Assembly (NCBI GenBank): GCA_035650735.1
Contig: DASRGZ010000119.1
Coordinates: 1-64,000 of the forward strand
Reading direction: 5' to 3'
Source: Chthonomonadaceae bacterium
GTDB lineage: Bacteria; Armatimonadota; Chthonomonadetes; Chthonomonadales; Chthonomonadaceae
Length of the DNA: 64,000 nt
Shown: positions 9,099 to 55,882 of the stretch, in pieces
Layout of the letters: every line of letters starts with the position of its first letter
Numbering within the stretch: position 1 is the first letter of the stretch
Notes under the pieces: model-generated
Told to the model about the DNA's origin: nothing
What the model saw: only the letters and a program-made list of their open reading frames with translations
The model's database searches: none
Position numbers and translations under genes: made by a program

Positions 9099-9445
9099 GC
9101 CCTCACCCCCAACCGACCTCGCCCCCGGCCCCTCTCCTTACTATAAGAAGAGGGGAGGCCCCCACCCCCTTACCCACTGCCAGGGTCGGGGCTGCAATGG
9201 ACTGCCAGGGTCGGCAGGGTTACGGCCCCTGCCTCCGCCTTGCCACAGCCCTCCGCCTAGCGATCCCCAAGAACCGGGGAGGGGAGAGCAGGAGCCGGGT
9301 CACCCCCTTCCCTCGTAGGGTCGCAAGGCAGAGCCGCGAACCGTTGAGCGGCGTCCCTTGCAGTGGGGGCCGGGGGGTTAGGTGATACACGAGGGAGAGG
9401 AGAAGCCGGGGCACCCCTTCCCTCGCAGGGAAGAGGGGTTAGGTG
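9099..9445. repeat. REP-like hairpin cluster containing nested ~47-nt elements
   Basis: CCCCT(C/T)CCC...GGGA(G/A)GGGG hairpins; elements at 9176-9265 (double) and 9319-9364. Confidence 0.8.
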
Positions 9446-9503
9446 AATCGGTGTAGAATAACCATAGAACCCTAGCACCTATGGAAGTGAGTGGAAGACC
9501 TCC

Positions 9504-10730
9504 ATGTGGCAACCGCGTAATTCGTTCCGCCTTAGCATCCTGGTTATCGTAGGGGGCGTGGGCCTGACAGCCCTCCTGCTTTTCTGGAAAACGCGCCCCT
9601 CTCCCGCTGCCGCCGCCTACAACCGTGGCAAGACCCTGGAGGCCGTGCATCTGATCGGGGATGCCCAGGCCACGTATCACCAGGCCATCCAACTAGACCC
9701 GCGTTTCGCGCCGCCGTACCGGGCGTTGGCGGAGCTGGCGGCGGCCAATTCCGATTTCGCCCCCTCCATAGGCTATTGGAAAGCCTACCTGGCGCGCGCG
9801 CCGAAGGCGCAACATGCCTGGTGCCAGCTCGCCTATGCGGAACTCATGGCCGGCCTGGAAGTCCCCGCCCTCCACGATGCGGAACGGGAATTGCAGCAGG
9901 ATCCCAACTGCGGACGGGCTCATCTCATCGCGGGCGTGCTCTATGCGCGCAAGTCGGAACCCCGGCAGGCGCTGGAGCACCTGGCGCCTGCCGCGCAAGC
10001 CTATCCCGATAACCCGCGCGTGCAGCTTGTCTATGGCCGTGTGCTGGCGCTCTCGGGAGAGTATGATCGGGCGGAGCCGGTCTTTCAAGGCATTATTTCC
10101 AAAGATAAGGCCCATGCAGAGCCTTATTACTGGCTCGGCTATATCTATGCGCGGCGCCCTTCCACGCCCCAGAATATCCAGCAGGCCCAGAAGCATTTCC
10201 TGGCCGCGCTTGAGCTGCTGCCCGAGTATCCAGAGGCTAACTTTGAGCTTGGGCATCTGTATTTTGGCCGGGGAAAAGTAAAAGAAGCGCTGCCCTTTGT
10301 CGAAAAGGCGGTTGCCAACCAGAAGCACTATCCGGCGGCCCTCTATCTGCTCGCGCAAACCTATGAGGCCCTGGGGCGAAAGTCGGAGGCCGCACGCACG
10401 CAGGAACGATTCCGCCGCGAAAGCCAGCTTGCCGCACGCGAGAAAGCGTTACTGCGGCTGTATGCCGTTGACCCGAATAATCTGGAAACGGCGCTGGCTC
10501 TGGGACAGCAGGAACTCGCGCTGGAGAAGCCGGAATCGGCCCTGCTGTTCCTGCGGGATGCGGCCCAACGCGCTCCTGCGGATGAACGGATACAGATGGC
10601 GCTCAAGCGCGCCCAGCAGCTCCTGGCTCCGGCGCAGCCTGCGATGCAAGCGGCTGATCCCTCGCAAGCCCCGTCCTCGGCCTCGCTCCCGCGCGAGCTC
10701 ACGACGGCTGGAGGCGCTTCCTCGCCTTAG
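9504..10730 (+). CDS. membrane-anchored TPR protein
   Basis: N-terminal TM and TPR repeats; paralog of 6207-7418. Confidence 0.85.
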   Translation: MWQPRNSFRLSILVIVGGVGLTALLLFWKTRPSPAAAAYNRGKTLEAVHLIGDAQATYHQAIQLDPRFAPPYRALAELAAANSDFAPSIGYWKAYLARAPKAQHAWCQLAYAELMAGLEVPALHDAERELQQDPNCGRAHLIAGVLYARKSEPRQALEHLAPAAQAYPDNPRVQLVYGRVLALSGEYDRAEPVFQGIISKDKAHAEPYYWLGYIYARRPSTPQNIQQAQKHFLAALELLPEYPEANFELGHLYFGRGKVKEALPFVEKAVANQKHYPAALYLLAQTYEALGRKSEAARTQERFRRESQLAAREKALLRLYAVDPNNLETALALGQQELALEKPESALLFLRDAAQRAPADERIQMALKRAQQLLAPAQPAMQAADPSQAPSSASLPRELTTAGGASSP

Positions 10731-10750
10731 AGTGTGTACGGTACTTCTGG

Positions 10751-10897
10751 CAGCCACCCCTCAAGGGGTGGACTGCGGACGGCAAGCCCCGTGAACGGGG
10801 CTCTCCCTTCTGGTAGCCCCGGAAGGGGACGAACCCACCCCTGGCAGCCCGCTTGAGCGGGCTTGTCGTCCACAGCCCGGTCCTTTAGGGCCGGGCA
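10751..10897. repeat. composite four-hairpin REP/REPIN- or IS200/605-end-like element
   Basis: Stems with TCAA, TGAA, TTGA and TTTA loops; outer arms GGACGGCAAGCCC / GGGCTTGTCGTCC. Confidence 0.65.
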
Positions 10898-10943
10898 CAG
10901 CTTCTCTGTTCGTATTTCAGGTGACAAGCTTCAGGATAACTCT

Positions 10944-12644
10944 GTGACAGGGCTAGCACATCCTCGGTATGGGTCGCTCCTATTAATGGGCCTGGCGGTC
11001 GCTCTGCTTTGCGGCTGCCGCAGCACGACGGCGCTTCCTATCGCCGGCCTCTCTCCCTCCGCGACGGCTCCGCCCGTGCTGCGCGATGTCGCCGGGGAAG
11101 TCGGCCTGCATTTTCGTTGGGGGCATGGGGGCAGGTCGCCGCTCACCATTCTGGAGACAGCAGGCGGAGGCGCCGGTTTCTTAGACTATGACGGAGATGG
11201 CCGGCTGGATATTCTGCTGGTAGGCGACCGGGTTGCGCTCTATCATAATGAGGGCAACGGCCATTTTCGCGATGTCAGCGCCCGCTCCGGCCTGACGGCG
11301 CAGGGGCCGCTGATGGGGTGCGCGGTCGGCGACTTCGATAACGATGGCCGCCCGGATATCTTTCTTACCGGTTACGGCATCGCCCGGCTCTACCGCAATC
11401 GGACGGGGCAGCCGTCTGCGTCCGGCATGCTCTTTGAGGACGTGACGGCGCGCGCCGGCGTTGGGGCGCGCGGGCCGCTGGATTGGGCGACGAGCGCCGG
11501 ATTTGCGGACCTCGATGGGGACGGGTTCCTTGACCTCGTCGTCTGCCATTATGTGCAGTTCAGGCCGCAGTCCCGCCCCTATTGCGATTATCCGGTGGCC
11601 CCAGGCGGCGGTAAGGTGCTGGCCGCCTGCCCTCCCTTCTACTATCCGCCCCAGAGGATGACCGTCTACCGTAACCGGGGCAACGGAACGTTCGAGGACG
11701 TTACGGCGCGGTTTCCCCGAGGGCACGGTAATAGCCTGGGATTAGCGTTTGCCGATTACGACGACGACGGGCGCATGGATTTCTATGTCGCCAATGACGG
11801 CCTGCCCGGCGATCTCTACCATAACCAGGGTGGCTGGCGGTTTGAGAATGTGGGGACCGCCAGCACAACGGCTTATAACGAGAACGGCAAGGAACAGGCT
11901 GGAATGGGCGTGGATTGGGCCGATTACGATGGCGATGGTCGCCTGGACCTGATCGTGGCGACCTTCCAGAATGAGCCGCGCAGCCTGTACCATAACGAGG
12001 GGCACGGCCTGTTTTCCTATGCCAGTTATACGGCGGGCGTTGGCGATGCGACCCGCGCGCGCCTGGCGTTTGGCGTCGGCTTCCTGGATTATGATAACGA
12101 CGGCTTCCCGGACCTGCTTCTCGCCAACGGCCACGTACAGGACACCATAGAGAAGATCCACCCGCCCGCGACGTATGCCCAGCCGATGCAGCTTTTTCAT
12201 AATCGCGGGGACGGCACCTTTGCCGAGGCGGCGCGGGAGGGCGGCCCGGCCTTTGCCCGGCCCATCGTCGGGCGCGCTCTCGCCCTGGGCGACTTGGATA
12301 ACGATGGGAAGGTGGATGCCCTGGTCGTGGATCTGGAGGGCGCGCCGCTGCTGTTGCATAACGAGAGCCGGGACGGCAATCACTGGCTTGGCCTCCGCCT
12401 GGTGGACCGGCACGGCAGGCGGGACGCGATTGGGGCGAAGGTGACGCTGGAGACGGCGGCAGGGAAGCGCCTGGCCGAGTCGCAGACCTGCCGCAGCTAC
12501 CTGGCGGCCTGCGACCCGCGTGTGCATTTTGGGCTGGGCGCCGAGCGGTCCGTTCTGCGGCTGATCGTGCGCTGGCCGGATGGCAAAACAACGGTGGTCC
12601 AGAATCCGCCCGTGGATAGATACCTTTCGGTTGAGGAGCGATAG
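10944..12644 (+). CDS. CRTAC1-family (FG-GAP/VCBS repeats + ASPIC/UnbV) probable lipoprotein
   Basis: Repeated DYDGDGxxD motifs, GMGVDWADYD, C-terminal AIGAKV...HFGLG...VRWPDG; LLCGC lipobox-like; start uncertain. Confidence 0.9.
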   Translation: MTGLAHPRYGSLLLMGLAVALLCGCRSTTALPIAGLSPSATAPPVLRDVAGEVGLHFRWGHGGRSPLTILETAGGGAGFLDYDGDGRLDILLVGDRVALYHNEGNGHFRDVSARSGLTAQGPLMGCAVGDFDNDGRPDIFLTGYGIARLYRNRTGQPSASGMLFEDVTARAGVGARGPLDWATSAGFADLDGDGFLDLVVCHYVQFRPQSRPYCDYPVAPGGGKVLAACPPFYYPPQRMTVYRNRGNGTFEDVTARFPRGHGNSLGLAFADYDDDGRMDFYVANDGLPGDLYHNQGGWRFENVGTASTTAYNENGKEQAGMGVDWADYDGDGRLDLIVATFQNEPRSLYHNEGHGLFSYASYTAGVGDATRARLAFGVGFLDYDNDGFPDLLLANGHVQDTIEKIHPPATYAQPMQLFHNRGDGTFAEAAREGGPAFARPIVGRALALGDLDNDGKVDALVVDLEGAPLLLHNESRDGNHWLGLRLVDRHGRRDAIGAKVTLETAAGKRLAESQTCRSYLAACDPRVHFGLGAERSVLRLIVRWPDGKTTVVQNPPVDRYLSVEER

Positions 12645-12728
12645 CCGCGCCTGAAACTGTGGTTTGAGATTGAGCCTTCGAGAGGCAGCCACGCTTTAGC
12701 GGGGCGCTGCCTGAGGAGTAGCCAGACC

Positions 12729-14597
12729 TTGAAATACGCCCTGTGGACAGAGAGAAAGACAGGCAAAGCAATCTGCCGCTTGCGCTGGCGCCGCTGCCTG
12801 CCGGCGCTATCCGCGCTTCCTGCGATCCTATCGCTTGCCGGCTGCACGCCAAAAGTGCGGCAGGAGCTTGGAGCGTCCACGCCCGCTGCCGCCGCTGTGC
12901 GCCCCTCCCGAAAGCCCGGCGCCTTTGTGGATGTAACCGAGAAAGCGGGCATTCGGTTCGCCTATTCCAACGGCGCTGCCGGTAAATATCTGATGGTGGA
13001 GACGACGCCGGGCGGCTGCGCTTTCCTGGACTACAATCAGGATGGGTTCCAGGATATCTTTCTCGTGCAGACCGGGCCGACCCCGGACAGCCCTGCCAAC
13101 ACGCCGCGCCCGCCCTGCCAGCTTTTCAAAAATAACGGGGACGGCACGTTCCGCGATGTCACGCACGAGGCCGGCCTGGATAAGCTAAACCAGGGCTACG
13201 CCCAATGTGTTGCCGTAGGCGACTACGATAACGATGGCTACCCGGATCTCTATATCACGGCCTATGGCGGCAACCATCTGCTGCATAACGAGCTAGGCAA
13301 GAGGGAACAAGAGACAGGGAAAGGGGAAGATGCCCTACACCCTACACCCTACACCCTACACCCTCTCTTCAAGGACGTTACCCGGCAGGCGGGCGTAGGC
13401 GATGCCGATCAGGGCGTCCGCTGGGCGACGAGCGCGGCCTGGGGCGACTATGATCGCGACGGCAAGCTCGACCTGCTCGTGCTGCACTATGCCCCCTGGA
13501 ACCTGGGCATGAACCGAAAGTGCATCAACGGCAAGGGGCACCTGACCTATTGCTCCCCCGAGGTCTATACCGATGACAGGCCCCGTCTGTATCATAACGA
13601 CGGCAACGGCCACTTCACCGATGTGAGCGCGCAGATGGGGCTCAATAAGGTGCATGGGCGCGGCCTCGGGGTCGTCTGGCTCGACTACGATCAGGACGGC
13701 TGGCCGGATCTGTACGTGGCCTGCGACATAACCCCCAACCTGTTGCTGCATAGCCGGCAGGGCAAGCGGTTCGAGGAGGTTGGCCTCTCGGCGGGCGTCG
13801 CTTATGGAACCAATGGCTCCCTGTTTTCGGGCATGGGCATTGCGGCAGGCGATTTCGATAACAAGGGTTGGGAAAGCCTGGTCGTTACCAACTACAGCGG
13901 CCAGCCCAACTCGGTTTACCGCGCGGTCGGCGGGGGACGGTTCGAGGACGCGACGTTCCCCTGCGGCATCGGAGAGGCCAGCCTCAACTTCCTGGCCTGG
14001 GGAGTCGAGGGCCTGGATTATGACAACGACGGCTGGCTGGATCTGGTGGTGGGCAACGGGCACGTAGACCCTTACATCGCCGACGTCGCGCAGAACGTCA
14101 CCTATCCGGAGCGCAAGCTGCTGTTCCGGAATCTCGGGAATGGGATGTTCCGCGATCAGGTAGAGGACCTGGGCGACCTAGCCGAAGAGCGCATCACGCG
14201 CGGCCTGGCCGTGGGCGATTTCGATAACGATGGGCGCGTGGATATTCTGGATAACAGCCATGAGATGCCCGCGCGCCTCTATCGTAACGTAACCAAAGGC
14301 GGCAATTTTGCCACGTTCCGGCTGGAGGGCGTCCAGAGCAACCGCGATGCCGCTGGCGCCCTGGTATGGGTCACGGCAGGAGGGCGGCGTCGGTTGGCGG
14401 AAGTGCGCGATGGCTCCAGCTACGGCTCCACAAGCGACCGCAGGCTGCACTACGGCCTGGGAAACGCCGCCCGCATAGATAAGGTGGAAGTGCGCTGGCC
14501 GAGCGGACGGCGGCAGACGTTTGCGAATCTGGCCCCGAATAAGTTCTACTATCTGCGTGAGGGCGGCTCTCTCCAGCCCGATCCCCAGGTCAAATGA
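12729..14597 (+). CDS. CRTAC1-family (FG-GAP + ASPIC/UnbV) probable lipoprotein
   Basis: DYDNDG repeats, SGMGIAAGDFD, HYGLG...VRWPSG; LAGC lipobox; start uncertain. Confidence 0.9.
   Translation: MKYALWTERKTGKAICRLRWRRCLPALSALPAILSLAGCTPKVRQELGASTPAAAAVRPSRKPGAFVDVTEKAGIRFAYSNGAAGKYLMVETTPGGCAFLDYNQDGFQDIFLVQTGPTPDSPANTPRPPCQLFKNNGDGTFRDVTHEAGLDKLNQGYAQCVAVGDYDNDGYPDLYITAYGGNHLLHNELGKREQETGKGEDALHPTPYTLHPLFKDVTRQAGVGDADQGVRWATSAAWGDYDRDGKLDLLVLHYAPWNLGMNRKCINGKGHLTYCSPEVYTDDRPRLYHNDGNGHFTDVSAQMGLNKVHGRGLGVVWLDYDQDGWPDLYVACDITPNLLLHSRQGKRFEEVGLSAGVAYGTNGSLFSGMGIAAGDFDNKGWESLVVTNYSGQPNSVYRAVGGGRFEDATFPCGIGEASLNFLAWGVEGLDYDNDGWLDLVVGNGHVDPYIADVAQNVTYPERKLLFRNLGNGMFRDQVEDLGDLAEERITRGLAVGDFDNDGRVDILDNSHEMPARLYRNVTKGGNFATFRLEGVQSNRDAAGALVWVTAGGRRRLAEVRDGSSYGSTSDRRLHYGLGNAARIDKVEVRWPSGRRQTFANLAPNKFYYLREGGSLQPDPQVK
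13333..13364 (+). repeat. (CCCTACA)x4 heptamer tandem inside a CDS
   Basis: Read directly; encodes LHPTPYTLHP. Confidence 0.9.
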
Positions 14598-15727
14598 GAG
14601 CGATGGCGCGTCCAGTTCTGGCTGTTGTCGGCCTGGCTGCGGTGGTTTTGCTGGTGTGGCTGTACGGCACGTCGCGCGGGCGGGAGTGGCGTCTGGAGCG
14701 TACCGGCACCGCCGACCTGCTGGCGGAAACGCTCTCGCACCCGGAGGATGCGCTGGCACAGCGCATTCTGGGGCGGCGGCTTCTGGCGGAGGGAAAGGCG
14801 GAGGAGGCGGCATCGGCCTTTGCCAGGGAAGCCGCAGCGCAGCCGGGAGCGATAGATCCGCTGGTGGCGCAGGGCCGCGCGCTCCTACAGGCGGGCCGAC
14901 CCGTGGAGGCCCTAACGCCTCTGGAGGCGGCGCTGCCACAGGCCCCGAAGTCGGCGGAAGCGCTGGCCGCGCTCGGAGAGGTCCACTATGCGCTGGGCAA
15001 CTCCGCGCAGGCGGAGCAGGCGTTCCGGACGGCGATCCAGGCAAGTCCCTCTTCTGCGGCAGCCTATGCAGGGCTTGCCTTTGTGCTTGCGGATAGGTAC
15101 AACTATGAGGCCGCGCGTCAGGCCGCGACAAAAGCCGTGCAGCTTGCGCCCGGTTCCGGCCAGGCGTATCTGGCCCGAGGCTATGTCGAAGATCAAGCCG
15201 GAAACAGCGCCGGGGCCGTGCAGGCTTATACGCGCGCCCTCCAGTTGGAACCGGACGATGGCCGCGCCTGGGAATTGATGGCCGGAGTGCGCACGCGCAT
15301 CGCTCGCCAGCCGCAGGAGTTTGCCCGGGCGGAAGAGGCGCTGGCGCGGGCAGAGCGGCTGCGTCCGCAATCGCCGCTCATCCCCTACTATCGCGGCTTG
15401 CTGCTGTCCAACCAGCATAAATACAGCCAGGCCATTCCCGAATTTCGCCGCGCTCTGGATCGCAGTCCGGAATTGACCGATGCCCTGTATCACCTGAGCG
15501 TCGCGCTCGCCTTTGCCGGGCAGCCCGCCGAGAGCGCCAGGGCACGGGCGCGCTTTGAGCGCCTGCGCAATTACCACCGCGAAATGGAGACTCTTCAGAT
15601 ACTTCTCGGTCGCGACCCGAATAGCGTCGCACTCTGGCGCAAAATGGAGCAGTTGGCTCTGGCTCAGGGGGACGAGGCCCATCTTCGCCTTGCCCGGCAG
15701 AAACTTCAGGCGTTGGCTACGAAATAA
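14594..15727 (+). CDS. membrane-anchored TPR protein
   Basis: ATGA overlap with the upstream CDS; TM plus Ala-rich TPR repeats. Confidence 0.85.
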   Translation: MRAMARPVLAVVGLAAVVLLVWLYGTSRGREWRLERTGTADLLAETLSHPEDALAQRILGRRLLAEGKAEEAASAFAREAAAQPGAIDPLVAQGRALLQAGRPVEALTPLEAALPQAPKSAEALAALGEVHYALGNSAQAEQAFRTAIQASPSSAAAYAGLAFVLADRYNYEAARQAATKAVQLAPGSGQAYLARGYVEDQAGNSAGAVQAYTRALQLEPDDGRAWELMAGVRTRIARQPQEFARAEEALARAERLRPQSPLIPYYRGLLLSNQHKYSQAIPEFRRALDRSPELTDALYHLSVALAFAGQPAESARARARFERLRNYHREMETLQILLGRDPNSVALWRKMEQLALAQGDEAHLRLARQKLQALATK

Positions 15728-15742
15728 CCGCTAATGAGGTCT

Positions 15743-15990
15743 GGCCCCACCCCTTTCTCCCCTCCCCTGTTCTTGGGGGAGGGGAGAATCTCTCACTCCT
15801 AGGTTCTTCGGTTCTCTTTTATCTCCCCTCCTCCCCGGCCCTTCTCCCTGCAAGGCAGAAGGGGAGCAGAAGCCAACTCTGTCTCTCCCCTCCCCTGTTC
15901 TTGGGGGAGGGGATGGGGGTGGGGGCCTCTCCCCTCTCCCGCAGCGTGGGAGAGGGGACAGGGGGTGCGGGCTATAGGGACGGGGATTAG
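15743..15990. repeat. REP-like hairpin cluster (uninterrupted host copies)
   Basis: CCCCTCCCCTGTTCTTGGGGGAGGGG twice; CCCCTCTCCCGCAGCGTGGGAGAGGGG. Confidence 0.8.
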
Positions 15991-16005
15991 GTGCGGCCTG
16001 CGGCT

Positions 16006-17184: not shown

Positions 17185-17232
17185 ACAGAGGCTCGCTTCT
17201 CCGGTTAGATTGGGAAGAAGATGACGGCCCGT

Positions 17233-18093: not shown

Positions 18094-18109
18094 AAATAGC
18101 CTCCTTTCT

Positions 18110-18342
18110 AGCCCCCACCCCTTCCTCCCCTCCCCCAAGAACAGGGGAGGGGAGACTTGGCTTCCCAGTTCCCCCTCTCCCGCAGCGTGGATCGCAAGGC
18201 GGAGGGCTGTCGCAAGGCAGAGCCGTGTCGCGAGGCGGAGGCAGGGGCCGTAACCCTGCCGACCCTTGCAGTCCGTTGAGCGGCGTCCCTTGCAGTCCGT
18301 TGAGCCCCGACCCTTGCAGTAGGGGGACAGGGGGTGAGGGCC
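18110..18342. repeat. REP-like cluster with a triply nested ~47-nt element (18190-18321)
   Basis: Minus strand shows three ACTGCAAGGG left arms followed by three GCCTYGCGA right arms. Confidence 0.8.
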
Positions 18343-18420
18343 GCATAACCTTCTTGTTACCCTTGGGAACGGCGGCACAGGGGCCACTACTGCCAGGGTG
18401 AGGGCCGCATAACCTTCTTG

Positions 18421-20679
18421 TTACCCTCCAAACGCGATCACTTCGGTATTCCAGGAGAGGCGCCGCGCCTGCGCCGAAGCGATAAGCCGATCACTCTCTA
18501 TCTGCCCGAACGACCAGCGATCTCCTCCGGGAAGGTCTGCCGCCGTCTGCGGGGGCTTCCAGCCCCACCAGGTCAGCACGGGCGCGCCAGGGCGCTCTGC
18601 CTTTCCCACGGTCCACTGCACGGTCACATCCAGCACGGGTTCGTCTTCCGGGCGGTCGCGCTCGATGCCTCTAGCCCATTGCGTTGCGGCCTCCGACGCC
18701 GGGAAAAGAGCGGCATAGCGTACCGGGCGGCTGACGCGCAGAAACGCCATGCAGTAGGCGGCCACGCCGCTATTGGAGTGGACGGGCGCCTCCACAGGCG
18801 TGATCTGGGCCAGCCGGTCGGGGGCCTCATTGCGCAGGAGGGAGCGCAGGCGCACCATCGAGGGCAGAATGTGCGGGTCGTCCTTCGTGCCCTCACGCTG
18901 CGTGGTGAAGCGTCCGGAGGCGAGCAGGCCATCCAGTTCCGCCCTGTCCAGGTCTTGCAGGTGGTCGCGATGGAAGCGGGCCACGTCCGGGTCGCCGAAG
19001 CGCACCCAGCGGTTTGTGTACTGGCGCTCGCCGGTCTGCCTGGGATAGGTCGGACCATCTATCTGCCAGCCGGCAATGTCGCCCCAGAGATTGGTCAGGT
19101 AGACATTGGGCGGCATCTTCTCCGCGCTGTGGATCGGCTGGCGCGCCACAAAGTAGCCGGCCCCGGTGTGCTTGACGACGTGATGTGCCAGCTCGCGGGC
19201 AAAGAGATAGGCGGCGTAGCCGAAGGTCTCCTTATCGCCGACAAACCAGGCCAGCCGCGCCATCGCCAGGGCCGGCGCGGCCTCGTCGCCCATCTCGGCG
19301 ATGGCGTCACGCCCGAACCCGCGCCAGGTACACTCGCGCGGCGTGATGAAAAGCTGCTTGATAAGCGGCCAGCGTGCCTTGATCAGCGCCCAATCGCCGG
19401 TATAGCGGGCGTAGGTCCAGAGCGTCAGGATCGTGTTGGAGCTGAACTTGCCCGCATCGTCGTAGCCGCCCCAGGTGCCGATACCCGGCCCGACCAACAG
19501 CAGTTTGCCCCGGAACGGTTTGTAGCGCGCTGGCTGCAAAACCCAATCGGCGAAGTAGCGATGCAGGCGCGGTCTGGCCTTTGCGACCAGATCGGCGGGC
19601 AGATAGGGTAGGGCGCGGCAGTAGTACTGCGCGCTCATCAAGGCCCAGCAGGTGTTACCGCCGTCCGATTTCTGGGGCGGCGGGTCGGCAAAGCCGGGCG
19701 GGTCGCCGAAGTCCTGATGAAACAGGCCGTCGGGACTGCTGAACGTCTCCGTCATCGCCTTCTGCAGCCGCGCCAGCGCCGCCGCGACCGTCGGGTTGGA
19801 GGTATCCGGCGCTGGCTCCTGCTCCGTCTGCGTGATGTAGTGCAGGATGGGGAAGCGCACCTCGTAGGCGTCCGCGTTCTCTACGCCCATATAAGGCCCG
19901 TAGGCGGTGAACAGGCCGGGGTCTACGAGGGGAGCGGCCTGAGACGCAGAGAGCGCCATCGGCATACGCTTCCCTTGATAGGCCAGCGCCAGCGTAGGGG
20001 AAAGGGGAGCCAGCTTCAGCGGCGGCGTGTTCCAATCGTCGCGCGTAGTCAGCCAGCGGAATCGAGCGCGCAGTACGACGGAATCGGTTTTTGGATCAAT
20101 GCGGAACGCCTCGTCGCAGGCGAGAGGATAGTTCCGCAGGGCGCGCGCCCAGAACCGGCAGCGGTGAATAACCTCCGCCGGCAGTGTCTTGCCCTCCCAG
20201 GCGCGCGTATCAGGCTTGTACAGGCCGTAGAGCGGCAGGAGCGCGACGTAGCCGAGGGCCGAGGAGGCGGAAGCGTGCAGGCCGCTCGCGTCCAGCGTGA
20301 CCGTATCCGGGCGGCGCTGCCACACCACCAGCCAGGGCGAGTCCCAGTGAGTCCAGCCCTTTGCGCCCTGAAACCAGACGAGCATCCAGGGCGCGGCCAG
20401 GCTGCGCCCGGAGAAGGTCAGGCTGCCGCCCGGAGCGACGTGGATAGTCTCCGCGCCCTTCGGCGTCATGCGTGCCAGGTGGCTGGGCGCTCCCAGGCCC
20501 CAGCGCTCCAGGCTGCCGAACAGGGTCAGCCGGTTGCGCGTGGTATGCGCCATAACGGCGGGCGATAGCTCGCTGGTGATAACGGCCAGCGCTTGCGTCT
20601 GCCAGGCGGGCGTCTGCGCGCTCGCTGCCACTCCCGCCAGCACTATCCCCAGAAAGAGCGCCCGGAAGAGAGAACGCAT
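18421..20679 (-). CDS. secreted protein of unknown function (752 aa)
   Basis: Sec signal ending ASA-Q; GGAGG RBS; Trp/Tyr-rich; no family recognised. Confidence 0.75.
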   Translation of the reverse strand: MRSLFRALFLGIVLAGVAASAQTPAWQTQALAVITSELSPAVMAHTTRNRLTLFGSLERWGLGAPSHLARMTPKGAETIHVAPGGSLTFSGRSLAAPWMLVWFQGAKGWTHWDSPWLVVWQRRPDTVTLDASGLHASASSALGYVALLPLYGLYKPDTRAWEGKTLPAEVIHRCRFWARALRNYPLACDEAFRIDPKTDSVVLRARFRWLTTRDDWNTPPLKLAPLSPTLALAYQGKRMPMALSASQAAPLVDPGLFTAYGPYMGVENADAYEVRFPILHYITQTEQEPAPDTSNPTVAAALARLQKAMTETFSSPDGLFHQDFGDPPGFADPPPQKSDGGNTCWALMSAQYYCRALPYLPADLVAKARPRLHRYFADWVLQPARYKPFRGKLLLVGPGIGTWGGYDDAGKFSSNTILTLWTYARYTGDWALIKARWPLIKQLFITPRECTWRGFGRDAIAEMGDEAAPALAMARLAWFVGDKETFGYAAYLFARELAHHVVKHTGAGYFVARQPIHSAEKMPPNVYLTNLWGDIAGWQIDGPTYPRQTGERQYTNRWVRFGDPDVARFHRDHLQDLDRAELDGLLASGRFTTQREGTKDDPHILPSMVRLRSLLRNEAPDRLAQITPVEAPVHSNSGVAAYCMAFLRVSRPVRYAALFPASEAATQWARGIERDRPEDEPVLDVTVQWTVGKAERPGAPVLTWWGWKPPQTAADLPGGDRWSFGQIESDRLIASAQARRLSWNTEVIAFGG

Positions 20680-36701: not shown

Positions 36702-36703
36702 TA

Positions 36704-46250: not shown

Positions 46251-46271
46251 CCGGAGATGTTCTAAAATACC

Positions 46272-46300
46272 CTGAGCCACCTCCGTATTCTTGCCGATAA
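46272..46300 (+). promoter_or_regulatory. possible sigma28 (FliA/SigD) promoter of flhF
   Basis: Exact GCCGATAA -10; weak CTGAG -35 at 16-nt spacing. Confidence 0.5.
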
Positions 46301-46507
46301 TCACCAGAGAAGCTCTATTTCTGGCAGTAAAGCACCCATGCGCTGTAAGTTCGTAGTTCTCCCAGAGGGGGAATCTACGCAGCGGCTCTGAGCGCTTGCT
46401 TAACTACACTGCCCTGTATCCAGTCGCGCTCTTCCGGTTAGTTCCACCCCTTGCGATAAAAGACGGCGCGCAGCACACCATTTCCATTTGGCGGAGGCTC
46501 AGGCACG

Positions 46508-47965: not shown

Positions 47966-48125
47966 ACGAGGGCGGGCGCTGCCTGGAATGGGATAATTCC
48001 TCCTGAGGTGTAGATTCGTCTCCAATCGGCCTTGCAGAAGAGAGGCATCCACACCCCTTGAGCAGGACGACAGCCCGTTTTGGCCCCCGTGCGAAAATCC
48101 AGGCATTTTTGCGCCCCGTAACCCC

Positions 48126-48154
48126 TTGACAGATCGATCCAAGCGGATTATACT
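48126..48154 (+). promoter_or_regulatory. sigma70 promoter of ispH
   Basis: TTGACA-N17-TATACT. Confidence 0.8.
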
Positions 48155-48259
48155 CTAGACACAAAGAACTTTGTTATACAAAGCGCTTTGTGTCTTGCGT
48201 TTTTATTCGGTACACAACATCTTGACTTGCCCTGGGAAAGTTTATCAGGAGAGAAAGCC

Positions 48260-49267: not shown

Positions 49268-49487
49268 GGTGCCTGCCTCACCCCTCAGATCTGAATCTGT
49301 CCCTTTCAGACGCAAGGCCGCATGCCCACACGGGCGGATGTCGGCAGGCATCCGCCATTCTCCCTCCACAAAAATAGCTTCGAGAATAGAACAGCGGGAA
49401 CCATACGCAACTTCCTTCGTAGCAACACTGGATTGCACCTGCGGTGGGCAGATAGCAGTCGCGTATCTGAAATCTACGGAGGGACAG

Positions 49488-50456
49488 ATGCAATACGTCA
49501 ATCTGGGGCGTACGGCCCTCAAAGTCAGCCGACTCTGCCTGGGCACAATGAATTTTGGCCCGCAGACGAGCGAGCAAGATAGCTATACCATCATGGATCG
49601 CGCCCTGGAACTGGGCATCAACTTCTTCGACACGGCCAACGTCTACGGCTGGAAGAAGGGCGAGGGCGTCACCGAGCAGATCGTTGGGCGCTGGTTTGCT
49701 CAGGGCGGCGGACGCCGCGAGAAGGTCGTCATTGCCACGAAAGTCTACGGCGATATGGGCGACTGGCCCAACACCGCGCGCTTGTCGAAGCTGCACATGC
49801 GCCGCGCCCTGGACGATAGCCTCCGCCGCCTGAAGACCGACTTCATTGACCTGTACCAATTTCACCATGTCTGGCGGGAGGCGACCTGGGACGAAATCTG
49901 GGAGTTCTGCGAGTGGGCGGAGCAGCAGGGCAAAGTGCTCTACTTCGGTTCATCCAACTTCGCCGCCTGGCATATCGTTCAGGCCAACGAAGCGGCCCGT
50001 CGTCGTAACTTCCTGGGCCTGATCTCCGAGCAATCCATCTATCACCTGCTCAACCGCAACATCGAGCTGGAGGTGATTCCGGCCTGCCAGGCGTATGGCG
50101 TGGGCATCCTCCCCTGGAGCCCGCTGGCGGGCGGGCTGCTTGGCGGCGTGCTGCAAAAGATCAGTGCAGGGCGGCGCGCTTCCGAGGGCGTCCAGAAGCA
50201 GCTGGAGCAGCACCGCGCCAAGATCGAAGCCTGGGAAAACCTCTGCCGTGAGCTAGGCGAACAGCCCGCCGACGTGGCGCTGGCCTGGATGCTGCAAAAC
50301 CCGGCCATCACCGCGCCCATCATCGGCCCGCGCACGATAGAGCAGTTGGAAGGCGCGCTGCGCGCTCTGGAGATCAAGCTGTCGGACGAGACCAACCAGA
50401 GGCTCAACGAAATCTTCCCAGGCCGCAAGACGGCCCCGGAAGACTACGCCTGGTAA
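49488..50456 (+). CDS. aldo/keto reductase
   Basis: LCLGTMNFG, FFDTANVYG, IATK, DLYQFH, WSPLAGG, PIIGPR. Confidence 0.95.
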   Translation: MQYVNLGRTALKVSRLCLGTMNFGPQTSEQDSYTIMDRALELGINFFDTANVYGWKKGEGVTEQIVGRWFAQGGGRREKVVIATKVYGDMGDWPNTARLSKLHMRRALDDSLRRLKTDFIDLYQFHHVWREATWDEIWEFCEWAEQQGKVLYFGSSNFAAWHIVQANEAARRRNFLGLISEQSIYHLLNRNIELEVIPACQAYGVGILPWSPLAGGLLGGVLQKISAGRRASEGVQKQLEQHRAKIEAWENLCRELGEQPADVALAWMLQNPAITAPIIGPRTIEQLEGALRALEIKLSDETNQRLNEIFPGRKTAPEDYAW

Positions 50457-50463
50457 ATCATTT

Positions 50464-50728
50464 AAACCACCCGCTGCGCTAGAGGCACGGAGACACGGAG
50501 GACACACGGAGAAAAACAGGAGAGAAAGACCAGGAGACAAAGACAAAAGCCTTTGGACAGGATGAACGGGATGAACCGGATTTCCACCACACAGACAAGC
50601 CTGGCTTCTCTGCCTTTGTCTAATCCTGTAAATCTTGTTCATCCTGTCTAAAATCTTGTCTTATTTCTGTCTTTGTCTTTCTCCGTGCCTCCTCCGTGTC
50701 TCCGTGCCTCTAGCGCAGCGGGTGGTTT
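50464..50728. repeat. 265-bp palindromic element with perfect 39-bp arms
   Basis: AAACCACCCGCTGCGCTAGAGGCACGGAGACACGGAGGA and its exact reverse complement; inner ACAGGAT/ATCCTGT repeats. Confidence 0.9.
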
Positions 50729-50736
50729 CATCGGTT

Positions 50737-52035
50737 TTATTCGAGGGTGAAGGAGAGGGCGAACAGCGCCGAGACGACCACCAGCAGGGGATTGATCTCC
50801 CGCCAGCGGCCCCGCGCCAGCAGCAACAGCAGGTAGGCAATGAAGCCGTAGCCGATGCCCCGCGCAATAGAGTAGGTGAGAGGAATAGAGATCAGGGTGA
50901 TGAAGGCGGGCAGACTCTCTTCGAGGCGCTCAAAGGGGATCTCGCGGACATGGGCGAGCATCAGGAAACCGACCACGATGAGCGCGGGCGCGGTGGCCTG
51001 GGCCGGAACGACGCTCACTAGCGGCGCGAAGAAGAGCGCGACCAAAAATAGCACGCCGACCACCGCTGAAGTCAGCCCGGTGCGCCCGCCTTCCCCGACG
51101 CCGCTGGCGCTCTCGATATAGGTGGTCGTGCTGGACGCGCCGCAGATCCCGCCCCACATCGCCGCCAGGCCGTCCACAAAGAGGATGTCGCGTAGGCGCG
51201 GCAGCCGCCCCTCTTTATCCACCAGCCCGGCCTGCCGCCCCACCCCGATAATCGTTCCCATCGCGTCGAAAAAGTCGCTCATGATGAACGCGAGGATGGT
51301 AGCCCAGAGCGCCGGGTTCAGCGCGGCCAGCACATTAGCCTTGCCGAAAGTTGAGAAGTCCGGCTGAGTGAGGAGCGTTTTGGGAGGCACGGCCACGCGC
51401 GCCGCCAGGGCGATCAGCGTGGTCAGGATAATTCCAAGTAGCAGCGCCGACCGCCAGCGCAGGGTGAATAGAATCAGCGTGATCGCCAGCCCTGCCGTCG
51501 CCACCAGCACCGCCTTGTCGTGGAAGGAGCCATAGGTGAGCGGCGCCGCCGGGCTGTTCATCTTAACGAGGCCCGCGTTGACCATGCCCAGCAGCGTGAT
51601 AAACAGCCCGATGCCCACCGAGATCGCCTGCTTCAACGAGAGCGGAATGGCGTTCATGATGGCCTCGCGCGTGCGCGTGAGCACCAGCAAGGCGATGATA
51701 AGGCCCTCGACGACCACGATTCCCATCGCCGTCGGCCAGGGCACCCCGTTTTTCAGACAGACGCCGAAAGCCAGCACCCCGTTAAGGCCCATGCCCGGCG
51801 CCAGCGCATAGGGCGTGTTCGTCCAGAGGCCCATCAGAAGCGTCGGAACGGCGGCGGCCAGGCAGGTCCCGGCGGCCAGCGCAGGAACGCTGTGCTTTAA
51901 GCCGGGGATATTGCTCAGGATTAGCGGGTTGACAAAGATGATGTAGGCCATCGTCATGAAGGTCGTCAACCCGGCGGTCAACTCTGTGCGCACGTCGGTG
52001 CCGCGCTGTCTGAGCCTGAAGTATCTCTCCAGCAT
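50737..52035 (-). CDS. NCS2 family (AzgA/PbuG-like) nucleobase permease
   Basis: AGLTTFMTMAYIIFVNP, APGMGLN, YIESASG...GRTGL. Confidence 0.92.
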   Translation of the reverse strand: MLERYFRLRQRGTDVRTELTAGLTTFMTMAYIIFVNPLILSNIPGLKHSVPALAAGTCLAAAVPTLLMGLWTNTPYALAPGMGLNGVLAFGVCLKNGVPWPTAMGIVVVEGLIIALLVLTRTREAIMNAIPLSLKQAISVGIGLFITLLGMVNAGLVKMNSPAAPLTYGSFHDKAVLVATAGLAITLILFTLRWRSALLLGIILTTLIALAARVAVPPKTLLTQPDFSTFGKANVLAALNPALWATILAFIMSDFFDAMGTIIGVGRQAGLVDKEGRLPRLRDILFVDGLAAMWGGICGASSTTTYIESASGVGEGGRTGLTSAVVGVLFLVALFFAPLVSVVPAQATAPALIVVGFLMLAHVREIPFERLEESLPAFITLISIPLTYSIARGIGYGFIAYLLLLLARGRWREINPLLVVVSALFALSFTLE

Positions 52036-52053
52036 GGGACGCGACCATCCTCC

Positions 52054-53100
52054 TTAACGCAGCCACTCGTCTCGATGCACCGCCACAAAGGCGTCGTCGC
52101 TCAGTTCCGGGTAGGCGCGCAGCACGCGGTCTATCTGTTCCTGCTGCCCTGGCGACAGTCCTTCGTGCGGGTCGAGGCACCAGATACCCCGCATCAATCC
52201 CTGGCGGCGCAGCACCTCATGGATGCCCGCGATGCAGCCCGCAAAGCCGTTGGCCGCGTCGAAAAAGGCCGCATTGGCATCCGTGACCGCTATCGCCTGC
52301 GTCAGCCACTCCGATTCCATCTGCGGGCGGTTGCGGGCGCGCTTGATGTCCTCCAGCATCTCCACCGCCTTCTGCGTCCAGACGGCCCAATGCCCGAGTA
52401 GCCCGCCCGCGATCTGGCGCTCCACCCGCCTTCCTGCGACCGGGAGGACGTACCGGGTCAGCAGGTCTACCACAATGTTATCGTCATTGCCGGTATAAAG
52501 GGCGATGTCGTCCCGGCCCGACTCGGCGACGGCGCGCACCACGTCGAGCGTCTGGTAGCGGTTAAAGGGGGCGATTTTGATGGCGGCCACGTTCTCGATC
52601 TCGGTGAAGCGCCGCCAGAAGGCATAGGAAAACACCCGTCCCCCGACCGCCGGCTGCAAATAGAAGCCGAAAATCGGCAGGACTTCGGCCACCGTGCGGC
52701 AGTGGCGTAGCACCGCGTCGTCGTCGGCTTCTTTCCAGGCGCTCAGGCTCAGCAGCCCCACGTGGTAGCCGAGCGCGCGCGCCAGCTCCGCCTCCGCCAC
52801 CGCCTGCGCCGTCTGCCCGCAGATTCCCGCCACCTTCACAAAGGCGCGCGCCCGCCCGGCCAACGCCGCGTCCACCGTTTCCGAGGCCAGTTCCAGCACC
52901 GGCTTGAGCAGGCCATACTGCGGCTCGCGAATGGCAAACTGCGTGGTGTGTACCCCAACGGCCATGCCGCCCGCGCCCGCCGCCACGTAGTAGCGCGTTA
53001 GCGCCCGCTGATAGCGCTCGTCCAGCTTGCGCTCCGGCGTCAGCGCCAGCGGGTGCGCCGGAATCACCTTCCCCGCCAGCAAATGGTCCCGCAGTTCCAC
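52054..53100 (-). CDS. DapA/NAL-family aldolase-like protein
   Basis: IPAHPLAL, VGVHTTQF, FYLQP, AIKIAPFNRY. Confidence 0.82.
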   Translation of the reverse strand: MELRDHLLAGKVIPAHPLALTPERKLDERYQRALTRYYVAAGAGGMAVGVHTTQFAIREPQYGLLKPVLELASETVDAALAGRARAFVKVAGICGQTAQAVAEAELARALGYHVGLLSLSAWKEADDDAVLRHCRTVAEVLPIFGFYLQPAVGGRVFSYAFWRRFTEIENVAAIKIAPFNRYQTLDVVRAVAESGRDDIALYTGNDDNIVVDLLTRYVLPVAGRRVERQIAGGLLGHWAVWTQKAVEMLEDIKRARNRPQMESEWLTQAIAVTDANAAFFDAANGFAGCIAGIHEVLRRQGLMRGIWCLDPHEGLSPGQQEQIDRVLRAYPELSDDAFVAVHRDEWLR

Positions 53101-53117
53101 GCTCGATCCTTTCTTCA

Positions 53118-53315
53118 AACCACCTGCTGCTAAAGATTCCAACAGGATTAAACAGGATTTCTCAGGATTTACAGGATTAAGGCAAGAGAGAAAAGTCTTC
53201 CAGTCAACTTGTAATCCAGAGGAACAGAAATTCGGTTGGTTGGGTGGGTTTTAGAAATCCTGTTTAATCCTGCCTAATCCTGTTAATCCTGTTGAAAGGT
53301 TTGTTGCGGGTGGTT
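53118..53315. repeat. palindromic element of ACAGGATT/AATCCTGT tandem repeats, same termini as 50464-50728
   Basis: AACCACCTGCTGC ... four CAGGATT units ... four AATCCTG units ... GCGGGTGGTT. Confidence 0.8.
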
Positions 53316-54372
53316 AAAATTTGCCGTCCCGCGCCTCGAAGTGAGTCGGCTTATTGAGGGTGGGGCCACCCTGCTGCACCCATTGCGCGACCCACTCGGT
53401 CATCTGCTCCAGCGTCACCGTCGGGTAGCCGAAGAGGCGGTGCGCCTGGCCGGCGTTGCTCAGGAGGGCCGTCTCCGCCTCCTCGCCCACAAAGGCCGGC
53501 GCACGCCCCAGCAGTTCGCCAAAGCGCGCCGCCAGCGTCCGAATAGAGACCGTTTCCGGGCCGGTGATGTTGAGGGCGACGGGCGGGCAAGCCGCGTGCT
53601 CCAGGCATTGAATGGCCCAGGCGCTCGCGTCGCCCTGCCAGATCACGTTAACGTGTCCCATCGTCAGGTCTACCGGCTCGCCCTGCGCGACCTTCTGCGC
53701 CACGTCCAGCAGGACGCCGTAGCGCAGGTCAATCGCATAGTTCAGGCGGAAAAGCAGCGTCGGCGTGCCGTGCAGCCTGGAGAAGTATTCAAACACGCGC
53801 TCGCGCCCGATACAGGAGTTGGCGTACTCGCCCAGCGGCTCCAGCGGGTCGCCCTCGCGGGAGCCGCCTCGCGCGATGGGCGAATTGGGATAGACGCAGC
53901 CGGTGGAGAAGACGACCGTGCGCGCGCCAGCGTACCGCTCCGCCACCAGCGCCGGAACGAGCGTGTTCAGCACCCAGGTGCGCTCCGGCGCCTCCGTCGT
54001 GCCGAACTTCTGTCCCGCCATGAAAATGACGTTGGGCGCGTCGGGCAGGCCTTGCACGTCCGCGCGGTTAAGTAGGTCGCAGCGCAGCGGCTCCACGCCA
54101 TGCGCTTTCAGTTCTTCGGCCACCGCCGGATTAGAAAAGCGGGCCACTCCATAGACGCGCTGCGTCCTGCCTAGCGTATCCCAAGCGCGTCGGATCATGC
54201 GCGCCAGCGTCGGCCCCATCTTGCCGCCGACGCCCAGCACGGCGATATCGCCCTCCAGTTCCTCTAATGCCTCCAGCACCTCCGCCGTCGGGCGCGAGAG
54301 CAGTTCCTCCAACTCTGCCTCATCCTTGGGCGCAGGCTGGTCCGGCGGTATCACTCGACTTACTGCATGCAT
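53314..54372 (-). CDS. NAD-dependent epimerase/dehydratase (extended SDR)
   Basis: LGVGGKMG, FSTGCVY, YANSC. Confidence 0.85.
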   Translation of the reverse strand: MHAVSRVIPPDQPAPKDEAELEELLSRPTAEVLEALEELEGDIAVLGVGGKMGPTLARMIRRAWDTLGRTQRVYGVARFSNPAVAEELKAHGVEPLRCDLLNRADVQGLPDAPNVIFMAGQKFGTTEAPERTWVLNTLVPALVAERYAGARTVVFSTGCVYPNSPIARGGSREGDPLEPLGEYANSCIGRERVFEYFSRLHGTPTLLFRLNYAIDLRYGVLLDVAQKVAQGEPVDLTMGHVNVIWQGDASAWAIQCLEHAACPPVALNITGPETVSIRTLAARFGELLGRAPAFVGEEAETALLSNAGQAHRLFGYPTVTLEQMTEWVAQWVQQGGPTLNKPTHFEARDGKF

Positions 54373-54387
54373 GGGTTTTTCCTTCTA

Positions 54388-54545
54388 CCTAACCCCCCGG
54401 CCCCCACTGCTAGGGTCGGCCCTGCAACGGTTCGGGCCTCCGCCTAGCGATCCTACGAGGGAAGGGAGGGACCCGGCTTCTCGGTTCCCCCTCTCCCGCA
54501 GCGTGGGAGAGGGGGTTAGGGGGTGGGGGCCATTAGGGCCGGGAG
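54388..54545. repeat. REP-like cluster with one ~47-nt element (54406-54452)
   Basis: ACTGCTAGGG...GCCTAGCGATC within a CCTAACCCCCCGGCCCCC...CTACGAGGGAAGGG host. Confidence 0.8.
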
Positions 54546-55517
54546 TTAGGTTTGTATCGGATAGCCGCCCCGGATGGTATCCACCAACTCCATTGTCTGC
54601 ACGGCATCAGCGAAGTGGCTGGAGGGCTGGCGGCCATCCAAAATGCAATCCACGAAATGCCGGGCCTGCTGGTAGAAGCCGTTGAGCTTGCGCGCATCCG
54701 AAGCGTCCGCGCCGAGCACCTCCGCCGCCGTGCGGTGACGCCGCTGGCTGCCCTCAAGAATCAACTCGTCCATAGCGGTAAGCTGCTCCACGTAGGCCGA
54801 GTAGCCCGGACTGTGTACCTCAAAGCAATGCATGCGCCCTCCGACGTTCCAGTTGCTTTGCAGGACGCCGGTAACGCCGTTGTCGAAGGCGACCAGGGCG
54901 TTCCAGGCGTTGGGGACCGGCGAGTCGTACTGCCCGACGACCGAGGCAACATGGACAACATTGCCGCCGGCCAGATATCTTAGCGTGTCTACCGCGTGAA
55001 TGGCGTCACAGCCGATCACATCCACCGCACCATCGTAGTAGATGGCGGAGGCGCCCTTGAAGAACGTGGCCTGCGCCTGAAGGATATTTCCGCGCTGCTT
55101 CGCCTCATCCAGCGCCAGGTTGAGCAGCGGGTCGTGCCGGCGATTGAAGCCGACCTGCGTGAGGCAGCCGTTTTCCGCCGCCAGGCGGGCCATCGCCTGC
55201 GTCTGGAACGTCGTGACGGCGGGCGGCTTCTCGATAAAGACATGCAGGCCGCGCTTGAGGCAGGTAACGACGATGTCAAAGAGTTGGTGGGGCGGCATGA
55301 AGACGCAGACGGCCTGCGGCTCTATCGCATCCAGCATCTCCCGGTAGTCGGCAAAGTGGCGTGGGATGTCCAGCTTTTCCGCCAGCGCCGCGCGCTTCTC
55401 TGCGACCAGATCGCACAGGCCCGCCAGTTCCACTTCCCGAAACTCGGCCAGGGAAGGATAGTGGAATGTGCTCGCCATCCCGCCAGCGCCGATCAGGCCA
55501 AACTTGATTTTGGACAT
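54546..55517 (-). CDS. Gfo/Idh/MocA family oxidoreductase
   Basis: IGAGGMA, HVFIEKP, VGFNRRH, DAIHAVD. Confidence 0.92.
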   Translation of the reverse strand: MSKIKFGLIGAGGMASTFHYPSLAEFREVELAGLCDLVAEKRAALAEKLDIPRHFADYREMLDAIEPQAVCVFMPPHQLFDIVVTCLKRGLHVFIEKPPAVTTFQTQAMARLAAENGCLTQVGFNRRHDPLLNLALDEAKQRGNILQAQATFFKGASAIYYDGAVDVIGCDAIHAVDTLRYLAGGNVVHVASVVGQYDSPVPNAWNALVAFDNGVTGVLQSNWNVGGRMHCFEVHSPGYSAYVEQLTAMDELILEGSQRRHRTAAEVLGADASDARKLNGFYQQARHFVDCILDGRQPSSHFADAVQTMELVDTIRGGYPIQT

Positions 55518-55639
55518 AGCTTCCGCTCCCTTGAGTGCCCGGTAGAACTGCGCCGAGGGCTAGGGCTATTGTAGGCATTGGAACCGAATTCGTCAAGAGG
55601 TCAAGCACCTTCGACGCCAATGAACTCCCTGCGGCGACT

Positions 55640-55882
55640 GCCCTCACCCCCTGCCCCCTACTGCCAGGGTCGGCCCTGCAATGGTTCGGGCCTCCGCCTG
55701 GCGATCCCCAAGAACAGGGGAGGGGAGAGGGGAAGCCTTGTTCTACCCTCATCCCCGGCCCTTCTCCCTAGCAGGGAGAAGGGAGAAGAGAAGCCGGGTC
55801 CCCCCCTTCCCTGTGAGCGGAGCAAAGGTTCCTTAGTCCCTTAGAACCTTAGAACCCTAGCACCCTCAGAACCCTAGCACCT
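55640..55882. repeat. REP-like cluster with one ~47-nt element (55660-55706) plus CCYTAG(A/C)A 8-mer tandem (55831-55881)
   Basis: Read directly from the sequence. Confidence 0.8.

Follow-up and report, generated by a model that had tools for sequence, protein, structure and literature searches.

Contig C119 of a Chthonomonadaceae genome assembly (GCA_035650735.1, hereafter G000), whose positions 1 to 64,000 form the window analysed here, carries several copies of a folded element of 46–47 nt, referred to below as the unit, which stands in place of four bases of other palindromic repeats or of its own copies. We regard it as highly probable (roughly 0.9) that the unit is a real mobile element that follows the junction rule set out below. 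As for the enzyme that moves it, a Y1 HUH transposase of the IS200/REP (RAYT) kind, acting in trans by transfer of single-stranded DNA, is our tentative candidate, to which we give somewhat less than an even chance.

Target replacement and the junction rule

In G000, 104 of the 393 flank groups have an empty allele, nearly always with 4 nt between the flanks. Empty and filled sites agree in this respect in G000, in G001 (a genome of the same genus) and in G010 (another genome of the family): 4 nt give way to the unit and the target is not duplicated, as had been proposed in an earlier reading of the window from its letters alone (the sequence-only reading). The YTCS target motif proposed at the same time proved too narrow, since TCCG, TCCT, CCCG and CTCT are used as well, and is replaced here by the broader Y-Y-C-N.

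The unit is best described as a fixed body of 44–45 nt followed by a partly target-derived tail of 2 nt. Its left junction is fixed and element-derived, with ACT in 399 of 440 monomers. On the right side the body, which ends in GAC, replaces Y-Y-C; the tail consists of C (or T) plus the fourth target base, which is kept if it is C or T, and is usually (not always) A if the target had G. The net gain per insertion is 43 (42) nt.

Within its own copies the unit inserts at three or four fixed points. The loop TTCG (155 of 174 empty alleles) goes with tail CA in 205 of 215 filled sites, the internal loop TCCG (the commonest empty allele there) likewise with CA (146 of 151), the stem sequence TTCC with TC (42 of 44), and the loop variants CTTG/CTCG with CA (15) or TA (8) among 25 copies. 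Among the host repeats, TCCT (63 of 73 empty sites) corresponds to tail CT (45 of 46), and TTCC, an allele that the sequence-only reading had deduced and that is now seen in 26 of 28 empty sites of its class genome-wide, to CC (41) or TC (4). CTCC occurs in two classes (75 of 83 and 24 of 26 empty sites) and corresponds to TC (37 of 42 in the one, 50 of 66 in the other, with a further 11 CC), CTCT (36 of 40 empty sites) to CC (13 of 14), CCCA/CCTG/CCCG to CA (31 of 37) and TCCG/CCCA also to CA (11 of 13). Copies within one class are not independent events; counted by context, there are at least 10 in G000 and about 10 more outside it. The third base of the commonest empty allele is C in 11 of the 12 classes with a usable count, if CCCA/CCCG is taken for class d; class c, whose empty alleles are split between CTTG (9) and CTCG (7), is counted by its minor allele only, and class l is a clear exception.

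The same rule is seen in the relatives. All seven units of G010 lie between GGGCC and GCCAACC and have tail CA, and the empty sites there hold 4 nt in 31 of 31 cases, TTCG in 20 of them. In G001, one empty TTCG site matches three filled copies with tail CG, and other targets ending in G lead to CA.

Conserved fold and free positions

The consensus of the unit consists of ACT, GC-N-AGG, three unpaired bases (GTC, GAC, GGC or AAC), an inner hairpin of 20–21 nt, four unpaired bases (mostly TCCG or TCTG, giving a 3 × 4 internal loop), CCT-N-GC, GA and the 2-nt tail. The inner hairpin starts with G and ends with C, and its stem, of 5 bp or longer, is free in sequence. In 419 monomers of G000 the inner pairs 2 to 5 are Watson-Crick in 399, 402, 390 and 402 cases, while independent columns predict 268, 253, 145 and 202. 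In a set of 22 sequences selected from several organisms, pairing holds in 97% of the cells, compared with 29–55% in slid controls, and four of the five inner pairs change on both sides; these sequences were chosen by patterns that fix the outer stem, and the kin among them are not independent. The compensated variation of the inner stem, first noticed in the few copies of the window, is thereby borne out as strong covariation in G000 and across organisms. Unit length stays constant at 46–47 nt despite unrelated inner-stem sequences in different organisms.

The outer stem, for which covariation in three ways had also been claimed, is conserved as sequence rather than covarying. The claim rested on three monomers; among the 419, the variable position is paired in 201 (118 by chance) and mismatched in 218, a C.T mismatch being its commonest state, and the other five of the six outer pairs are invariant. 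The idea that the internal GTC acts as a guide by pairing with the terminal GAC was rejected, as variants with GAC or AAC at this place retain the same ends.

Some unusual copies were encountered in G000. On contigs C42, C115 and C223, units have the inner segment inverted between the outer inverted repeats, or are folded back to perfect palindromes. Single divergent units with unique inner stems are found at C191:1581(+) and C35:33268(+), and the former adjoins a hairpin that we take to resemble the right end of an IS200/IS605 element.

Units within the window

All eight units claimed for the window in the sequence-only reading were found, the monomers and the double nest exactly where they had been placed. 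A loose pattern has four matches in the window against 0.01 by chance, and a covariance model detects five intact units at E<2e-11 (four of the five belong to its training set), everything else having E of at least 0.18. A monomer of 46 nt at 9319..9364 on the minus strand stands in place of TTCC of a host hairpin and has tail CC. Two monomers of 47 nt lie on the plus strand, at 54406..54452 in place of TTCC and at 55660..55706 in place of CTCC; both have tail TC and are identical in another assembly (L059).

The double nest at 9176..9265 (plus strand, tail TC) stands in place of CTCC of a host hairpin. In it, a second unit at 9201..9247 (plus strand, tail CA) replaces the loop TTCG of the outer unit and is mismatched at an outer-stem position, in agreement with the stem mismatch described earlier for some nested copies. 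The triple nest on the minus strand is likewise present, one base shorter than first given: it extends over 131 nt from 18190 to 18320, not 18321, has tail TC and is identical in another assembly (L126). Its middle unit (18208..18296, minus strand, tail CA) has a body of the 9319 type with the loop TTCG replaced, and after swapping TTCG back 44 nt are equal to the 9319 monomer, as had been pointed out, the 2-nt tail being different (CA versus CC). The innermost unit occupies 18226..18272 (minus strand, tail CA). Empty targets CTCC, which had been indicated near 15890–15957, are located on the minus strand at 15949..15952, in the host hairpin class filled at 18190, and at 15906..15909, in the class filled at 9176 and 55660.

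The genes flanking units in the window are ordinary metabolic or TPR genes. The unit has no match in Rfam at gathering score, and the sole Rfam match of the window is a tRNA gene at 4667–4739(-).

Abundance, nesting and later shuffling

Recursive parsing of G000 yielded 677 units over four rounds (477, 157, 40 and 3), with nesting up to a depth of four, and counting of ends gave 861 left and 941 right ends in 487 clusters. With about 850 copies, the unit accounts for around half a percent of the sequence of G000. As only 23 of 445 clusters lie within open reading frames (ORFs, from crude calls), the unit is non-coding and dispersed.

Much of the diversity of the nests is the result of later recombination, not of fresh insertion. 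Where a loop holds an insert, the two arms of the parent unit still complement each other in only 27 of 50 nests (17 after shuffling), whereas the arms of monomers do so in 296 of 346 cases; clusters with unbalanced numbers of left and right ends are also common. Left and right host flanks are nevertheless concordant in 209 of the 273 clusters classified on both sides, a count that excludes 56 clusters of class m. Chimeric arms combined with concordant flanks therefore suggest that parts have been exchanged without crossover, and we infer that gene conversion or slippage between copies was responsible.

A natural sequence tag allows some of this copying to be followed. One composite of 165 nt contains a unique insert of 35–36 nt within a duplication of 37–38 nt. 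The tag insert has 15 matches in G000, which distinct flanks resolve into about nine loci spread over at least four host classes and the interior of other units (contigs C40, C62/C195, C63, C105/C131, C126, C138, C147, C155, C171, C187, C194 and C206, and in addition locus L001), and the tails of the tagged composite are CA, CC or TC according to the host. Either the ends of the composite served to move it, or conversion copied it; conversion, or a collapse, is somewhat favoured by differences between hosts at its outer right position.

This last observation also speaks for a more conservative explanation, in which there were few founding insertions, the apparent junction rule reflects accidents of these founders, and all further copies arose by host-repeat amplification, gene conversion and slippage. 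The incomplete complementarity of nest arms, the mismatched outer position in more than half of the monomers, the unbalanced clusters and the recurrence of identical composites within one host class point in the same direction. We nevertheless consider this explanation unlikely, as the same 4-nt rule holds in unrelated hosts, in G001 and G010 and in other organisms with different inner stems, and as units of one rare inner type end in CA at one target and in CT at a second (L025 and L034). It covers the copy number, not the first insertions, and is as much a complement to a mobile element as a rival to it.

An origin of the nests by chimeric assembly of a simple repeat is hardly credible, even though short-read contigs break at nests and chimeric arms are common. 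In four sequencing runs of three studies the flanks are matched without difference and the contigs then end, none of those listed bridging a nest. Of 35 nests in other assemblies, which may share reads with G000, 33 were identical to G000 together with 40-nt flanks; one of the remaining two spans a contig break of G000 and the other is missing from it. Nests also carry private point changes, and the triple nest and both monomers at 54–55 kb, but not the double nest at 9176, were covered by those other assemblies and recur there letter for letter. Sites polymorphic for presence of the unit were not seen and the copies show point decay, so the burst of unit insertion may be over.

By its dimensions, the tag insert looks like an off-target CRISPR spacer, because the duplication periods in G000 match the sizes of repeat plus spacer in the array beside cas1 on contig C93, which has a 30-nt repeat and spacers of 35–37 nt. 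Among 99 two-copy short duplications in G000, 74 have a period of 64–78 nt, 47 of them with duplications of 29–31 nt. About 74 scars were recognized, consisting of a direct duplication of 26–40 nt (mode 30) around an insert of 32–49 nt (mode 36–38), one of them at 18332–18427 of the window; they look like genome-wide off-target spacer integration. Seven of the scar inserts match elsewhere in G000, and there is a second size class with duplications of 35–40 nt. The stretch duplicated by the tagging insertion is exactly positions 10–46 of the unit, a core of 37 nt with GTCG at its start and CGAC at its end around the hairpin, presumably similar in size and shape to some CRISPR repeats. At C109:6231-6380 and C135:1248 there are short arrays whose repeat measures 29 nt and whose spacers measure 32 nt, a second CRISPR type or a remnant of one. 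Cas1 was rejected as mover of the unit itself: Cas1-type scars duplicate 30–38 nt, whereas the unit duplicates nothing.

Distribution in other genomes

Among the matches listed for a covariance model search of 41 other genomes of the family, there were nine units in G001, seven in G010 and one in G019. The latter genome was rejected as an independent carrier: its contig (L001, contig C128 of G019) holds rpoB, which is missing from G000, plus a tagged nest of the G000 type, and is probably a mis-binned, stray piece of the G000 organism. The same model found no unit among the matches listed for 26 further genomes of the order, where divergent kin may have been missed, and a strict pattern had no match in 400 genomes of the phylum, a sample that did not contain G001 and a type of pattern that its units partly escape.

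A metagenome scan revealed at least 127 loci with the unit, most of them identical to G000; foreign flanks were found in 14 of these loci, on 13 contigs. As in the two relatives, the related units on about a dozen of these contigs have inner stems of new sequence that are paired throughout. One further candidate (L012, 49 nt, inside a gene in another phylum) was taken as a chance match. Viral contigs gave no match for either the unit or the tag insert, and plasmids and phages gave only partial matches at chance level. A further repeat of G000, about 80 nt long and present roughly 105 times, has imperfectly inverted ends and is similar to a miniature inverted-repeat transposable element (MITE); examples lie on C191 near 900 and on C96 near 41600.

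A parasite of other repeats

The targets of the unit are palindromic intergenic repeats plus its own copies. In G000, G001 and G010, several of these host repeats flank Y1 (REP-type) transposase genes, and C-rich host hairpins flank DUF559 genes in G001, G002 and G010 (four of five loci); a stand-alone DUF559 gene was not found in G000. Per host class there are 11–69 filled and 44–154 empty sites. Since its targets are palindromic repeats, several of which flank Y1 genes, the unit is a parasite of other selfish repeats. The repeats beside the Y1 gene at C166:12640 belong to a host class that also occurs, as an empty inverted pair, at positions 10750–10897 of the window.

Candidate enzymes and proposed mechanism

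TnpA-REP cuts single-stranded DNA at C|T in vitro and performs strand transfer (accessible part of PMC3333891), and one homologue also cuts C|A (PMC8266576, likewise in part). In the unit, the left end carries C|T and the right end C|A, C|T or C|C, and in the target a C precedes the kept base. This match of unit and target dinucleotides to the cuts of TnpA-REP favours a Y1 HUH enzyme, as do the host repeats that flank Y1 genes and the lack of reverse transcriptase, IS110 and IS91 matches in G000. In gaps between co-directional genes, 112 units are in sense and 130 in antisense orientation, and the absence of a preference relative to transcription fits an action at the DNA level. There are three Y1 matches in G000 and 17 over G000, G001 and G010, and intact REP-type Y1 genes occur in G001 and G010 (L206–L214).

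We propose that the unit would move as a folded single strand that is recognised by its shape and ends. A Y1 HUH enzyme acting in trans would join the 3' end of the unit (GAC) at the target C|N, and the 5' end would be joined three bases further left, with loss of the intervening Y-Y-C. The founding insertions would then have increased in number together with their host repeats, and gene conversion or slippage would have reshuffled them.

Several observations weigh against this proposal or against the rule on which it builds. In G000 the two REP-type Y1 genes are broken, and a stop interrupts the third Y1 match; no unit lies beside the 11 inspected Y1 genes (of the 17 matches); and Y1 presence does not separate carriers, because 32 of the 42 family genomes have Y1 genes and three have the unit. 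The unit lacks a 5' GTAG tag, and plain HUH transfer at C|T predicts a gain of 44 nt with the target kept, not of 43 nt with loss. Sites of classes l and m (tail GG, 52 of 58) break the junction rule and were read as plain 43-nt insertions, often with two more left bases gone. The strand asymmetry of the unit is thin: G.T and A.C occur 43 and 1 times at one loop-side position, where pairing is assumed, and 15 and 17 times within the stem proper, and both strands fold about equally well. No replication-strand bias was seen (113 versus 86, p 0.065), in a weak test in which genes showed none either. Neither excision footprints or circle junctions (0) nor head-to-tail dimers were seen in G000. Finally, G000 lacks rpoB, and because even this gene is missing, the absence of genes from G000 proves little.

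The broken Y1 genes lie at C166:80092-80433(-) and C166:12640-12873(+); in one of them proline takes the place of the second histidine of the HUH motif, the other contains a frameshift, and the repeats flanking them are abundant.

The searches for other movers covered the unit ends and the neighbouring genes. Long versions of the unit with an HUH nuclease, recombinase or reverse transcriptase, for which the sequence-only reading had advised a search, did not emerge: among the unpaired left and right ends listed for G000, none paired at >250 nt or enclosed a gene, and no linked gene was found. What a motif scan of G000 turned up (a single IS3 fragment, serine recombinases and a Vsr) does not adjoin any unit; IS91-type enzymes had no match there, in a search whose control had no match anywhere either. 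According to Pfam, 68 ORFs adjoining units in 28 foreign loci and nine ORFs of the window have no mobile gene in common; there is one IS630-like transposase pair, in L034. A triple nest at L034:1230-1350, in another organism, directly follows this pair.

The fold of the unit recalls the attC sites of integrons, which have two stems, an unpaired spacer and a free terminal loop. Together with the fixed unit length and nine tyrosine-recombinase matches in G000, this likeness would suit a tyrosine recombinase, or an unnamed structure-specific host enzyme, that recombines the folded strand. We think this rather unlikely: the junctions lie outside the outer stem and not at the spacer, there are no cassette genes, a loss of bases is unexpected, and no recombinase is common to the genes adjoining units in 30 foreign loci.

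IS1111 elements have a short sub-terminal inverted repeat at their ends and make no target duplication. The unit likewise has a sub-terminal inverted repeat of 6 bp, 3 and 4 nt in from its ends, targets repeats and duplicates nothing, and an RNA-guided recombinase of the IS110/IS1111 type could be imagined to move it in trans as a small circle. However, such a conservative crossover loses no target bases, the more than ten unrelated targets would need many guides, and the IS110 domain was not found in G000 or G001 (one in G010; the assemblies are incomplete), all of which makes this decidedly unlikely.

Target-primed reverse transcription of a short structured RNA, finally, would explain why structure is conserved and sequence free and why excision footprints are not seen; staggered nicks would delete target bases and the primer would supply the tail, target-primed priming being able to yield both a loss of target and a target-derived 3' tail. 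We judge it very unlikely, as G000 has no RVT_1 candidate, as the units show no 5' truncation (almost all monomers retain the ACT start) and as they have no orientation bias to transcription.

A bolder version of a structure-dependent transfer, which we find possible yet doubtful, is that an unnamed enzyme reads the shape of the folded 46–47-nt strand, puts this strand in place of a few bases in whatever hairpin is exposed and takes along all that the outer stem contains, which would define a class of micro-transposons. If so, the tagged composite in its four or more target classes would show carriage of contents inside the outer stem, and the replacement-type, duplication-free chemistry would be unlike that of HUH, DDE, serine, tyrosine and IS110 enzymes and possibly the engine of repeats like the small dispersed repeats (SDRs) in many phyla. 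The sequence-only reading had spoken of a non-autonomous, structure-dependent mobile unit that targets repeats and itself by replacement; this part of it, with 4 nt replaced and no duplication, is upheld in three genomes and more than ten target contexts, and the ssDNA or RNA intermediate that it suggested is putative, as is the enzyme.

Significance and comparison with known systems

How bacterial repeats below 50 nt spread has been an open question since SDR elements were described. In the unit family the ends are known to the base, one junction rule is seen in three genomes, and covariation backs a structure in which free positions can be told from fixed ones. Empty and filled sites number in the hundreds, copying can be followed by a natural sequence tag, and the intact Y1 genes of two relatives make a short list of candidate enzymes. 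Its roughly 850 copies reshape the intergenic hairpins of G000. A genuine exchange of target bases, should the chemistry prove to be one, would have no counterpart among textbook insertion reactions.

The closest parallel is provided by the SDRs of Nostocaceae (SDR1–8), reportedly described by Elhai et al. in 2008 with lengths of 21–27 nt; SDR1 and SDR4 are said to nest in their own copies, and SDR4–6 to have a conserved structure with compensatory changes. Like these, the unit is very short, non-coding and dispersed, is inserted in other repeats, has no known enzyme, nests in itself (to depth four) and has an inner stem with compensatory changes. The statement that no described element behaves in this way was thus too strong, self-nesting SDRs being described; what we did not find in print is the 4-nt replacement rule, in a literature search that covered few subscription papers and no supplements, which limits the comparison with SDRs. 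In contrast to SDRs, the unit is about twice as long (46–47 versus 21–27 nt), has two stems and an internal loop, is hosted outside Nostocaceae in a different phylum (Chthonomonadaceae), and replaces four target bases, which SDRs are not known to do. SDR5, of 21 nt and with unknown function, is inserted precisely into the HIP1 repeat motif (accessible parts of PMC4390886, PMC5861425 and PMC13756078).

With REP/REPIN-RAYT systems the unit shares its nature as a high-copy intergenic imperfect hairpin, C|T and C|A at its ends and a location among the REP-like flanks of Y1 genes. It differs in lacking a GTAG-type tetranucleotide 5' of the hairpin foot (as defined in the available portion of PMC6006769). 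Insertion of REPs within other palindromes, not nesting, is reported in the part of PMC3733652 available to us, and the accessible portions of PMC3116915, PMC2884548 and bioRxiv 2021.07.10.451892 describe no target replacement. Further differences are that the unit does not flank a cognate Y1 gene (0 of 11), does not occur in inverted doublets, exploits REP-like repeats as a parasite and inserts into its own copies.

Among IS200/IS605 elements, non-autonomous derivatives make no target duplication, have a sub-terminal hairpin and keep a constant target motif beside their left end without losing bases. The unit agrees with them in the absence of a target duplication, in its sub-terminal hairpin and in a plausible single-strand route (mechanism in the accessible part of PMC3333891), and differs in having no constant retained target motif (its flanks vary on both strands), in the loss of target bases and in having one hairpin only. 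Bacterial MITEs, of 70–300 bp with terminal inverted repeats of 15–30 bp (PMC3733652, in part), are similarly non-autonomous and dispersed with a stem-loop fold, whereas the unit is shorter, has only a 6-bp sub-terminal repeat and makes no target-site duplication. The unit is a new family of the SDR-like, unexplained kind: it is larger and much more abundant, its replacement junction is asymmetric, and it has a tag built in.

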